From a virus, in the IMG/VR virus record IMGVR_UViG_3300029893_000005, positions 7,904 to 71,903 of that record: a stretch of 64,000 nucleotides of DNA; one strand, 5' to 3'. Within the stretch, counting starts at the first letter, position 1. Every line of letters begins with the position of its first letter. The position numbers and the translations under genes were made by a program. The notes beneath the pieces are model-generated. The model did no database searches, had not been told where the DNA came from, and worked only from the letters and a program-made list of their open reading frames with translations. Below are positions 6,418 through 57,385 of the stretch, piece after piece.

Positions 6418-8408
6418 TGGCTGCCGCGTTGGATTATCTGGGCTACGTGAAGCAGAAGGGCCAGAACCAACTGGTCTCCCCTGTGACACGCCCGCACGAT
6501 GCCGATGGGTCGGGCGCCTACCTTTCCGATACCGCCCGCTTCGTCCTCGAACTGCTCGACGAAGCCACGCGCTACCGCAAGCCCTTCTCCGACCAGTGGA
6601 GCAAGTACTACAGCCGGTACCGCGGCAACACCTGGAAGCCCACCGACCTGCCTCGGGCGCAGCGGTGGAAGGCCTACCTGACGGTCAACTACTCCCAGTC
6701 CATCATCGAGACCATCCTGGCGGTGCTGTTCGGCAGCCCGCCCAAGATCGTCTTCAGTGCCACGGCACGGGAGCAACACCCCTACGTCGAGACCATTCAG
6801 GCGGCGATGGACAGCGTGTGGCGCCGCGCCAAGGGCTCCCGCCACACCCTCAATGCCTTCAAGAACGCTTGTATCTACGGTACCGGGTACCTGAAAATCT
6901 GGTGGGACGAGACGGCTGAGGACGGCAAAGGCGGTATCCGCTTCGATCTGGTGCCCACCGAGAACATCTGGGTGGACCCGATGGCGGACAACCTGGACCG
7001 GGCCGAATACGTCATCGAGGTCAAGCGGGTCCCGCTCTCCTACATCCGCCGCAACTACCCGGAGCGCGGCAAGTACGTGCGCACGGGTACCGCGAAGGAG
7101 CAGGCCTCCTACGCCGAGATGAAGGCGACCGGCATGTTCAGCCGCGACCCGCAGGGCCCAGCCACCCTGGTGTCGGCCACCTACGGGGTGCAGCCCCTCA
7201 TCAACTACGGCGAAGCCTTCGGCACCGCTACACCCTCGGTGGGCCAGTCGCAGGAGCAGTGGTGCGATCTCTACGAGGTGTGGTACCGGGATCACTCGAT
7301 GGTGACCGAGACCCTGCCTATCCAGATCGGCGTCGACCCGAACACCGGGCAGCCGCAGGTGATCATGCATACGGTCACCCGCAAGCGGTACCCCAACGGG
7401 CGGGTGTTCCACTATGCCGGCGGGGTGTGCCTCGACGACGGCCCGGCTCCGTACACCAAGTGGCCCTACGTCAAGTTCACCTTCAACCCGATGCCGGGTG
7501 AGTTCTACGGCCAGGGCGCTATGGAGATCCTGCGGGACCTCCAGATCGAACTCGACAAGCGGCGCTCCGACATCGTGAACCACGCCAACCTGATGAGCAA
7601 CGCGGTCTGGATCGTCGATCGCGGCTCCCAGGTGGACCGTCGCATGCTGACCAACGAGCCCGGCCTCGTCATCGAGAAGAACCAGGGCACCGAGGTGCGC
7701 CGCGAGTCCCCCATGCAGCTCCCCAACTGGATGCTGCAGGCGGTGGACATGACCATCCGCGACCTGCGCGAGGTCATCGGGGTGCCGGCCACGGCTTCCG
7801 GCCAGCCCCCTCGTGGCGTGCGCAGCGGCAGCGGCTTCGAGGCGGCCCAGCAGATCGCCAACACCCGCATCCACCTGCTCGGACTGTTGATGAAGGACTC
7901 CCTGGAGGACCTCGCGGGTATCTGCGTGGCCCTGATGCAGCAGAAGTACACCCGTCCCCGCATCGTGCGGCTGGTGGGCAGTAACGGCACGCCCTACTGG
8001 GTGCCATTCGACCAGCACGCCGCCCGCGGTGACTGGGACATCGAAGTCGAGGTCGACTCCATGAGCGCGTTCCTGCGGGCGGCCCGCGCCCAGCAGGCCA
8101 TCCAGCTCTACCAGTTGCAACTGCTCGACAAGCGGGGCGCCCTGGAGGGAGTGCAGTGGCCCAATCGTGAGGCGGTGCTGCGGCGCATGGGCGACATGAG
8201 CGGCAGCGGGATCGAGGATTACGATGGAAGTCCTGGAGTGCCCAACCGCGATCGCTCTGATCAGTCCGGGTACGCTCTGTCTGTTCGGAAGGCTGCTCCT
8301 GCAGGTCCCGGAGCCGCACCTCCGAGTCCTGCTGGAGCCATGCCTGCTTCGATTCCTCCCATCGGCGGAACCCCGGGTGGTTATCCTCCTCCGCCCGGTG
8401 GCGGATAA
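6417..8408 (+). CDS. Portal protein (P22-like/podovirus type) with a Pro/Gly-rich C-terminal tail
   Basis: 663 aa with W..YY..YRG, NAFKNACIYGTGYLKIWWD and P...FYGQG motifs; lies upstream of scaffold and capsid. Confidence 0.85.
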   Translation: MAAALDYLGYVKQKGQNQLVSPVTRPHDADGSGAYLSDTARFVLELLDEATRYRKPFSDQWSKYYSRYRGNTWKPTDLPRAQRWKAYLTVNYSQSIIETILAVLFGSPPKIVFSATAREQHPYVETIQAAMDSVWRRAKGSRHTLNAFKNACIYGTGYLKIWWDETAEDGKGGIRFDLVPTENIWVDPMADNLDRAEYVIEVKRVPLSYIRRNYPERGKYVRTGTAKEQASYAEMKATGMFSRDPQGPATLVSATYGVQPLINYGEAFGTATPSVGQSQEQWCDLYEVWYRDHSMVTETLPIQIGVDPNTGQPQVIMHTVTRKRYPNGRVFHYAGGVCLDDGPAPYTKWPYVKFTFNPMPGEFYGQGAMEILRDLQIELDKRRSDIVNHANLMSNAVWIVDRGSQVDRRMLTNEPGLVIEKNQGTEVRRESPMQLPNWMLQAVDMTIRDLREVIGVPATASGQPPRGVRSGSGFEAAQQIANTRIHLLGLLMKDSLEDLAGICVALMQQKYTRPRIVRLVGSNGTPYWVPFDQHAARGDWDIEVEVDSMSAFLRAARAQQAIQLYQLQLLDKRGALEGVQWPNREAVLRRMGDMSGSGIEDYDGSPGVPNRDRSDQSGYALSVRKAAPAGPGAAPPSPAGAMPASIPPIGGTPGGYPPPPGGG

Positions 8409-56898: not shown

Positions 56899-56916
56899 TG
56901 CATCCTCCGGGAATAG

Positions 56917-57028
56917 TACACGACGAGACTGTGGAGTCGAACCACCACCCCGCCCTGGGGTATTGCAGGACTCGAACCTGCGTCAGGGTGCTACCCTGCC
57001 GGTAACCCGCCGTTATCCTCGTCGTGTA
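56917..57028 (-). ncRNA. Structured RNA module with two tRNA T-arm-like hairpins inside an 11-bp closing stem
   Basis: UACACGACGAG/CUCGUCGUGUA; GCAGG-UUCGAGU-CCUGC; GUGG-UUCGACU-CCAC; CAGGGU/ACCCUG. Confidence 0.65.
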
Positions 57029-57031
57029 TCT

Positions 57032-57163
57032 TGGTGGGGCGAGCAGGACTTGCACCTGCCTATTGGAGGGGAGGTAAGCAAGTGTTGCCGACTCTGCCTC
57101 CCGCCCGCTCCCCGACTCATCGCCGGACGGTTTCGGGCTCTGCCGCCTAGTGGTATCCGCCCC
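57032..57163 (-). ncRNA. 132-nt tRNA-like RNA with acceptor stem, T-arm and encoded ACCA end, but no canonical D or anticodon arm
   Basis: GGGGCGG/UCGCCCC 7-bp stem plus A-CCA; GCAGG-UGCAAGU-CCUGC; long arm GGGAGG...CCUCCC. Confidence 0.65.
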
Positions 57164-57166
57164 GGA

Positions 57167-57370
57167 GGTCCCGCAAGGCACGTCCTTGTTGCCCGCCCGA
57201 CGAGCCCGCCGAAGCGGCTTGAGGGCTCGTCAGGTGTCGGAACCCCACAGAGCGAATCGGAGTCGCCTCCCCGCAGTCCCGCCGCTCGTACCGCTCAAGC
57301 GGCGCTCGGCGGTACGAACTCGCTCGGGCCGGGGCGTATGTTCAGTAGCCCGGTCCGAACTTGCGGGACC
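57167..57370 (-). ncRNA. ~205-nt multibranch structured RNA module
   Basis: Closing stem GGUCCCGCAAG/CUUGCGGGACC; internal stems GUUCGUACCGC/GCGGUACGAGC and UGACGAGCCC/GGGCUCGUCG; GNRA and UUCG tetraloops. Confidence 0.65.
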
Positions 57371-57385
57371 ACGGGAGGGCGAACG

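Follow-up and report, generated by a model that had tools for sequence, protein, structure and literature searches.

A cluster of tRNA-like and long-helix RNA modules upstream of a phage DNA polymerase gene

The DNA considered here, which we refer to as the window, is a stretch of 64,000 nucleotides (nt) that corresponds to bases 7904-71903 of a 79,468-base-pair (bp) IMG/VR record of an uncultivated phage with a guanine-plus-cytosine (G+C) content of 65%. Within the replication operon on its minus strand, an untranslated gap of 487 nt separates the gene of a 286-amino-acid (aa) protein from that of a DNA polymerase, and this gap carries hairpins of the transfer RNA (tRNA) type within an array of folded modules, designated M1, M2, 3a and 3b (Table 1). 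The array is real and unusual, and is claimed by no Rfam 15 family and by no tRNA finder at normal threshold. Nevertheless, the locus is not categorically new but represents an orphan variant of tRNA-like, t-element-like RNAs. We tentatively favour the interpretation that the gap encodes non-decoding, tRNA-derived RNAs together with long-helix modules, which would be cut from the operon transcript by host tRNA-processing enzymes. An earlier note on this DNA had described M1 as a tRNA-like RNA at the centre of a structured array. The sequence features that it listed and the structured cluster of tRNA type withstand closer analysis, but the acceptor of M1 is doubtful and M1 is not the centre of the array.

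Folded modules and T arms on the minus strand

The structure of the gap is specific to the minus strand. Folded as a whole, this strand gives z = -6.4 relative to shuffled sequences (none of 100 shuffles is as good), compared with z = -3.4 for the plus strand, and about 70% of its bases are paired in the minimum-energy fold. This fold holds 21 G-U pairs, all of which would be A-C combinations on the plus strand. The claim of extensive pairing thus holds for the gap as a whole, but M1 by itself is not unusually stable. The stability signal of the array stems from 3a, 3b and M2 (z = -7.2, -4.6 and, over 56915-57031, -3.6), and M1, far from being the centre of the array, is its least structured part as judged by module-wise z-scores. 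None of 300 shuffles folds as well as 3a. Inside 3b, a small hairpin stands beside one of 12 bp whose tip is capped by UUCG. The closing helix of 3b takes up GGGGCGG, the strand that had been proposed as the 5' strand of the M1 acceptor, and the ten pairs of this helix that were tabulated (57257-57248 with 57164-57155) have probabilities of 0.91-0.9999 in the whole-gap ensemble. A long closing helix in 3b also matches the building plan of the other modules, with about 19 bp in 3a and 12 bp in M2.

The gap also contains T arms of the tRNA type. We scanned for stems of at least 4 bp with a G53-C61 pair and a loop of the form U[U/G]CRANN, and found six T-arm-like hairpins in the window (both strands, 128 kilobases (kb)), where shuffled sequences predict 2.2. 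Three of the six lie within 113 nt of each other on the minus strand inside the gap, and this concentration excludes chance as the source of the clustering. The T arm of M1 and the first T arm of M2 are identical at 15 of 17 bases. The two T arms of M2 have loops that differ at one position (UUCGAGU and UUCGACU) and stems that differ in sequence yet pair; similar loops on differing but paired stems read as an RNA pattern rather than as the pattern of a protein-binding site. The T-arm motif GGTTCRANYCC is matched exactly by two of the three gap T arms, both in M2 (GGTTCGAGTCC and GGTTCGACTCC), and the T arm of M1 (GGTGCAAGTCC, with the loop UGCAAGU) is one mismatch away from it.

Much of what had been read in M1 can be retraced. 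GGGGCGG (57163-57157) can pair with UCGCCCC (57042-57036) over 7 bp, comprising six G-C pairs and one G-U pair; the 5-bp T arm adjoins the acceptor 3' strand without a spacer; and the discriminator A and an encoded CCA are present. When the 132-nt piece is folded alone, it adopts the layout of acceptor, T arm and long arm, the last being the GGAGG/CCUCC pairing described before. As far as its sequence goes, the succession of T arm, 3' strand and ACCA in M1 has exactly the geometry of a tRNA top half.

Could the signal reside in the DNA instead? An origin of replication, a site for packaging, or repeated palindromes that bind a protein ahead of the polymerase gene would be in keeping with the position of the gap in the replication module, with two copies of GCAGG-N7-CCTGC 78 bp apart, and with the fact that the plus strand also beats its shuffles. 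Such a DNA-level feature is nonetheless very improbable, given that the 21 G-U pairs work on the minus strand only, that the helix changes in a relative keep pairing only in minus-strand RNA, and that the loops rather than the stems are conserved among the three T arms, matching the universal T loop of tRNAs. The relative in question is a 177-nt contig from a soil run, which covers 57151-57283 with four differences from the window and is the sole variant found; near-identical copies of the phage in three Logan runs show zero variation in the gap. Read on the minus strand, the soil contig has U in place of C57229 and of C57225, each time turning C-G into U-G in the 12-bp helix of 3b, within its 9-bp core (57231-57223 with 57207-57199), and A in place of G57181 in a hairpin loop. 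All three changes fit a minus-strand RNA, whereas the helix changes would be mismatches in DNA or in plus-strand RNA. Similarity to the window ends below 57151, 13 nt into M1. This break fits a placement of GGGGCGG in 3b, and equally a tRNA-like shell with a relative-specific centre. We give the soil contig little weight, because it is short and shallow.

Table 1. Features of the gap and of its neighbours, in window coordinates
Feature	Position	Strand	Description
Unknown gene, 286 aa	57386-58246	-	upstream neighbour of gap
Gap	56899-57385	-	487 nt, untranslated; between stop of 286-aa gene and ATG of UDG-PolA
Module 3a	57263-57382	-	multibranch; closing helix of about 19 bp encloses a 16-bp hairpin and an imperfect hairpin
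Module 3b	57155-57262	-	19-bp closing helix, 57257-57238 with 57173-57155
M1	57032-57163	-	132 nt; proposed 7-bp acceptor, non-canonical centre, T arm, discriminator A, CCA
M1 T arm	57059-57043	-	GCAGG-UGCAAGU-CCUGC; T-loop position 55 is G
M1 ACCA	57035-57032	-	A57035 and CCA 57034-57032, directly 3' of acceptor 3' strand
M2	56917-57028	-	closed tRNA-like module; 12-bp closing stem, 57028-57017 with 56928-56917
M2 D-like hairpin	57012-57000	-	
M2 extra hairpin	56998-56984	-	15 nt
M2 T arm 1	56981-56965	-	in anticodon-arm position
M2 small hairpin	56960-56948	-	
M2 T arm 2	56945-56931	-	
Shine-Dalgarno and ATG of UDG-PolA	56908-56904; 56898-56896	-	GGAGG and ATG; 9-21 nt downstream of M2
UDG-PolA gene, 844 aa	54364-56898	-	downstream neighbour of gap

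Relation to tRNAs and to look-alike RNAs in other phages

At gathering thresholds, the Rfam 15 models return nothing in the window. When the limit is relaxed to E <= 10 over the gap, a tRNA-Sec match appears on M2 only, and M1 has no tRNA or other Rfam match in the gap even at this level. ARAGORN reports no genes in the window, and at an 80% threshold it issues partial calls that are mutually inconsistent. The whole phage record is devoid of canonical tRNAs (RF00005, even at E 10). The earlier note had conceded that a confident hit to a standard tRNA or a known family would deprive the locus of novelty; now that this comparison has been made, no model claims the cluster at normal threshold and the objection does not apply.

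The tRNA-Sec match of M2 is weak (23.7 bits, E 0.049, against a gathering score of 47), and the closing stem and T stem of this module add up to 16 bp with a 2-nt bulge. This differs from the hallmark of tRNA-Sec and allo-tRNAs (Mukai 2017, PMC5389517), which consists of 8/4, 9/3 or 9/4 acceptor/T stems forming a 12-13-bp branch, together with a 7-nt anticodon loop. In silico removal of the 15-nt extra hairpin turns M2 into a tRNA-Ser(CGA) for ARAGORN at its default threshold. More generally, single deletions in M2 give an ARAGORN tRNA call in 77 of 1386 cases, 51 of which are tRNA-Ser(CGA).

Conceivably, then, the gap might hold a decaying tRNA cluster, in which M1 would be a relic without D and anticodon arms, and M2 likewise a relic or else an atypical tRNA-Ser(CGA) that carries an additional hairpin and is still in use. 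Besides the deletion results and the tRNA-Sec-type match over M2, this possibility can draw on the failure of M1 to fold better than shuffles and on an analogue of M2 at locus L136, which ARAGORN calls tRNA-Ser(CGA). We consider it rather improbable all the same. The deletion test is permissive, as 13 of 200 interior-shuffled controls (6.5%) reach the number of calls obtained with M2, and for this reason the tRNA-Ser(CGA) reading of M2 is only a weak rival. The supposed anticodon loop of M2, UUCGAGU, is a T-loop sequence with G37 and U38, unlike the loop generally known from tRNA-Ser. Decay would moreover leave unexplained why 3a, 3b and M2 are exceptionally stable and why an intact 7-bp stem, T arm and CCA stand beside a wholly replaced body, and the sister phages have no tRNA at this place. 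The codon usage of the phage, in which UCG accounts for 27% of Ser codons, is neutral on the matter.

The centre of M1 contains an 18-nt direct repeat (57147-57130 and 57101-57084, 78% alike), which suggests that it has grown by a duplication of about 46 nt. An origin of M1 as a tRNA with one insert was rejected, as none of 1875 single deletions of 25-74 nt gives an ARAGORN call.

RNAs that resemble the gap modules occur in other phages. The 17-mer of the M1 T arm is found at more than 111 IMG/VR loci, which fall into four kinds. The first comprises ordinary phage tRNAs, several of which have a CAU (Met-type) anticodon as read from the sequence. The second is a large group of elements of 144-254 nt around a GCAGGTGCAAGTCCTGC match (L003, L004, L007, L011, L017, L019, L025, L037, L047, L085 and L087), which combine a 7-bp acceptor, a D arm of the tRNA-Leu type (UGGCGGAA...GACGC) and a UGCAAGU T arm with unrelated long centres. 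Their hosts are uncultivated phage contigs, many apparently from human-gut samples, and in the loci tested neither ARAGORN nor Rfam 15 calls them. One of the ordinary tRNAs, 83 nt long, located in L069 and read as Leu(CAA), has D and T loops as in this group. M1 itself differs from the group in having no class II (tRNA-Leu-type) D arm. The third kind consists of minis of about 45 nt that directly follow reading frames (L071, about 6932-6985; L038, about 1500-1560; L092, about 760-800). In these, a stem of 5 bp, one pair of which is C-G in one copy and U-A in another, is joined through the 12-nt linker ACUAGCAGACAG to a UGCAAGU T arm and AC(CA).

The fourth kind is represented by L009, in which an element of 126 nt (7092-7221) exactly fills the interval from tRNA-Thr(GGT) to tRNA-Arg(ACG) in an array of 35 tRNAs. 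The phage has 137 kb, its record contains the element once, and cultured phages have no match to it. Apart from M1 itself, nothing scores higher than this element (31.8 bits) against a model made from M1. Its T arm is identical to that of M1, its 3' strand shares five of seven bases, and its length is close (126 against 128 nt). Five of seven acceptor pairs are alike, one is swapped from G-C to C-G, and two single-sided changes keep pairing. A UA-NCAN-UAGG stretch follows the stem in both elements, whereas the centres do not align. Homology of M1 and the L009 element is no more than possible.

A model built from M2 finds the same layout in L136 (574-679), L124 (5308-5413), L157 (5275-5367), L156 (2269-2362) and L158 (4398-4501), and, as a looser match, in L126 (4635-4722); at least L156 and L126 sit between called tRNA genes. 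In this layout, a closing stem encloses a D-like hairpin, which in some elements is followed by an extra hairpin, then a hairpin with a T loop at the position of the anticodon arm and, after a spacer, another T arm adjoining the 3' strand. The closing stems span 6-13 bp and covary (L156, L157, L158, L136, L124 and L126). ARAGORN calls none of these elements except that of L136, and the call there comes about because CGA results if its T loop is taken for an anticodon loop. A consensus scan gave no support for a promoter and terminator that would make the L136 analogue a stand-alone unit. In the six-sequence alignment to the M2 model, 93.7% of cells pair, compared with 38-51% when partners are slid. 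Of the 33 pairs, 22 differ at both bases, and the closing stem accounts for 11 of these among its 12 pairs. The alignment was fitted to the model and hence is biased toward it, and its members were found by T-loop words; we therefore take it to indicate a shared tRNA-like architecture rather than proven common descent.

Likenesses of a simpler sort turned up alongside these. L118 (542-656) and most of the loci from L117 to L145 have a separate long hairpin with a perfect T loop within 15-40 nt after many of their tRNA genes, a look-alike of an acceptor/T-arm minihelix. In L125, the T arm of a tRNA-Thr and a trailing T arm have the same sequences as the two T arms of M2.

Proposed processing from the operon transcript and its alternatives

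How might such a cluster be used? The plus strand carries structural genes and the minus strand a replication module encoding a UDG-PolA fusion, RecA, DnaB, Dam, a primase and SbcCD. The polymerase downstream of the gap is a uracil-DNA-glycosylase (UDG)-superfamily domain fused to a family A polymerase. A consensus scan detects neither a promoter nor a terminator in the gap. Located inside a minus-strand operon and devoid of such signals, the gap is most simply part of the operon transcript, in line with the earlier suggestion of processing from a longer precursor. A small reading frame through M1 was judged non-coding: its third-position G+C is about 0.59, compared with 0.73-0.95 in the kept open reading frames, and it is not preceded by a Shine-Dalgarno sequence as read by hand.

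We envision that M1, M2, 3a and 3b are transcribed on the minus strand within the replication operon, and that their T arms and stacked helices imitate the top half of a tRNA. Because of this mimicry, the tRNA-maturation enzymes of the host would cut there: RNase P at the 5' border, and RNase Z or E, together with trimming, at the 3' border. The closing helices of 12-19 bp may be targets of RNase III as well. In the early messenger RNA (mRNA) of phage T7, intercistronic hairpins are cut by RNase III. Cutting would uncouple the message of the upstream gene from that of the polymerase, each of which would gain a structured, protected end, and it would also free stable tRNA-shaped RNAs that might have a role of their own. 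Both the processing of the gap transcript and these consequences are our reading of its structure and setting.

A precedent for this kind of punctuation is provided by the t-elements of plant mitochondria. These are non-canonical tRNA-like folds with GGTTCRANYCC whose ends coincide with sites cleaved by RNase P and by RNase Z (Forner et al. 2007, PMC1920247). Cleavage thereby generates ends of mRNAs, while the fragment that is set free can be stable and can gain CCA-type additions (PMC1920247). T-elements and gap modules are alike in the T-arm motif and in their location in an untranslated stretch beside protein genes, and the gap does contain what characterises a t-element, a GGTTCRANYCC T arm in a non-canonical tRNA-like fold beside a protein gene; this assigns it to a functional class, not to a homologous family. 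Unlike the t-elements, the gap belongs to a phage with a high-G+C host. Its modules are also larger (112-132 nt) and are joined to long-helix modules without tRNA features.

Alternatively, nothing might be excised, and the gap could act in cis as a 5' leader through which the polymerase message is adjusted in its translation or stability, with the tRNA-like shapes binding a protein or the ribosome or serving as protection. M2 ends only 9 nt before the Shine-Dalgarno sequence, the gap has no promoter or terminator, and in a fold extended by the polymerase flanks GCUCGC of M1 (57044-57039) pairs with polymerase codons 2-4, GCGAGC (56894-56889), with a probability of 0.92 for the one reported pair. 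GCUCGC comprises the last two bases of the T stem and the first four of the 3' strand of M1, and it is a perfect complement to these codons. This complementarity could be a translational link or a product of chance in a G+C-rich sequence; 6-bp pairings rich in G and C are cheap in this composition. Stable sequestration of the Shine-Dalgarno sequence or the ATG is not seen in the ensemble with the polymerase flanks included, and occlusion of the ribosome-binding site by a long-range helix found no support once the flanks had been added. Furthermore, the sister phages express polymerases with 73-75% identity from unrelated, unstructured leaders. We therefore regard a leader function as improbable.

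Returning to excision by tRNA-processing enzymes, several results weigh against it. The acceptor of M1 as drawn is statistically not distinctive and is outcompeted by the stronger helix of 3b. When the G-rich sequence upstream is shuffled with its dinucleotides preserved, 25% of the shuffles contain a strand that pairs with UCGCCCC over all 7 bp with no more than one G-U pair, and the real sequence offers six further partners that pair at six of seven positions. The proposed acceptor pairs have a probability of about 1e-4 in the whole-gap ensemble, and forcing them costs 6.8 kcal/mol. M1 folds with z = -1.4 to -1.7, and 57029-57154, which leaves out the GGGGCGG strand, with z = -0.5. The sole distinctive part of the M1 acceptor end is the CCA, with p of about 0.018 for its occurrence at the fixed place by chance. 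A 5-bp alternative partner for the 3' strand is found in GGCGG (57147-57143). As several pairings compete, thermodynamics is unable to assign a partner to the C-rich 3' strand of M1. Tertiary contacts, proteins or prior cleavage, all of which lie outside the energy model, could still favour the tRNA-like fold.

The other modules and the look-alikes raise objections of their own. The 12-bp closing stem of M2 with its 2-nt bulge differs from the 7+5-bp geometry that is measured by RNase P. All analogues in other phages came from searches with exact T-loop words, which builds part of their likeness in. On a plain alignment score, the resemblance of the L009 element to M1 at the 5' end is no outlier among 63 loci, which had been pre-selected on the T arm. 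Finally, the runs that hold the phage are DNA only, with no RNA run among them.

A last set of objections comes from the relatives of the phage. It is present in several subsurface and rock metagenome runs with 0-2 differences per 8.5 kb. In searches against cultured phages, neither the gap (blastn) nor the 286-aa upstream protein (tblastn) has a match, and the polymerase (tblastn) has only matches of about 25% identity. The polymerase protein has no relative in IMG/VR, and only three useful relatives, with 75%, 73% and 37% identity, emerged among 5.8 billion proteins; the lineage is thus very sparsely sampled. In the contigs of these three relatives, which are otherwise syntenic, the polymerase is preceded by different sequence: 281 unrelated nt in the 73% relative and about 210 unrelated nt plus a small called gene in the 75% relative, whereas in the 37% relative there is no gap at all. 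The upstream stretches of the sister phages have nothing in common with the gap of the window, they fold like shuffles (z = -0.9 and -0.16), and they contain no tRNA, Rfam family or convincing T arm. Being absent from the two closest sisters, the cluster must be dispensable for this group of phages or very recently acquired. Scans with exact or degenerate words for 3b, M1 and M2 in Joint Genome Institute (JGI) metagenomes, GTDB genomes and IMG/VR returned nothing, or unrelated tRNA contexts only. A match in L151 was set aside as a chance match inside a gene.

If processing does take place, would the purpose lie in the messages or in the excised RNAs? The released tRNA-shaped RNAs could act in trans, as decoys for nucleases or toxins that attack tRNAs or as sponges or ligands of tRNA-binding proteins, so that cutting of the operon transcript would merely make them. 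Such decoy or ligand roles, which had been raised before, are purely conjectural. It is suggestive that a record without a canonical tRNA keeps mimics of the tRNA top half with T arm, stem and CCA, and that uncalled tRNA-like RNAs recur in other phages, where the L009 element and that of L156 sit between tRNA genes and no mRNA punctuation is needed. Yet no target can be named, M1 has no anticodon-type loop with which to mimic a specific tRNA, and the locus is not kept in the sister phages. The record also reveals no partner gene, be it for Ro60, a CCA-adding enzyme or RtcB, although with an estimated completeness of 74% the absence of a gene from the record is not proof. On balance we hold action in trans to be unlikely. 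A specific version of it, in which private tRNA mimics are excised by the host from an early replication transcript and serve as decoy or sponge for a host factor that reads the elbow of tRNAs or their acceptor end, such as a defence nuclease that cleaves tRNAs, appears decidedly doubtful. Were it true, non-decoding tRNA-shaped RNAs would be a general counter-defence tool of phages, and the uncalled elements in tRNA arrays would be further examples.

The presence of tRNA genes in phages is usually explained by codon usage or by the replacement of tRNAs destroyed in defence. Should the tRNA-shaped RNAs of the gap be real, tRNA mimicry in phages would serve ends other than translation, such as the processing or stability of messages or the binding of host factors that recognise tRNAs. 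Many elements of this sort in phage contigs escape standard tRNA finders as well as Rfam 15, so that the non-coding RNA content of phages may be undercounted. What makes the locus notable is mainly its occurrence in a phage record without a real tRNA, together with its place in an expanding collection of tRNA mimics that phage annotations lack.

Comparison with tmRNA, Y RNA and other phage RNAs

Transfer-messenger RNA (tmRNA) was considered and rejected, including its permuted form: ARAGORN at its default finds none, and no Rfam match appears at E 10. A permuted-tmRNA call is obtained only at a 70% ARAGORN threshold, with an implausible tag ending in LPAG. With its proposed 7-bp acceptor starting with GGGG, M1 would resemble the tRNA-like domain of tmRNA; the two also have in common a T arm and an encoded CCA, as well as a long helix in place of the anticodon stem. 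M1 is unlike tmRNA in that its 3-70 pair is G-C rather than G-U, that it has no tag frame, resume codon or pseudoknots, and that it measures 132 nt only. Bacterial Y RNA was rejected too. In YrlA, the Y RNA that goes with Ro60/Rsr (Chen et al. 2014, PMC4201824), a tRNA-like module with a T arm is embedded in a larger RNA closed by a long stem, and M2 has this layout. Unlike the YrlA systems, the phage has no Ro60/TROVE gene in its 79-kb record of an estimated 74% completeness (PF05731, for which control genomes were positive) and no Rfam Y RNA match at E 10. The differences from tmRNA to which the earlier note had pointed, the missing G3-U70 pair and tag, are upheld.

An attachment site that copies the 3' end of a host tRNA is likewise unsupported. 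A 24-mer and a degenerate 25-mer from the 3' end of M1 have no matches in 185,579 species genomes (GTDB), and the record contains neither the tyrosine-integrase domain PF00589 nor the Recombinase domain PF07508 of large serine recombinases.

The RNAs RNAC and RNAD of phage T4 have about the size of M1 and paired ends of the tRNA type, a likeness by description only. Also named species 1 and 2, they are small RNAs from the tRNA region of the phage with unknown roles (PMC3014915). T4 makes them beside eight real tRNAs, whereas the present record has none.

GOLLD, ROOL and other large phage RNAs have no covariance-model match at gathering thresholds in the window or at E 10 in the gap; as a positive control, the search found the GOLLD RNA of L049. 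This 283-kb contig, which carries a tRNA array beside the GOLLD RNA, also holds a T arm of the M1 type (about 1500-1545) that is followed by TCACCCC-GCCA, a 10-nt loop and GGGGTGA. ARAGORN calls nothing there, and the acceptor strands stand in permuted order, as they do in two-piece tmRNA genes.

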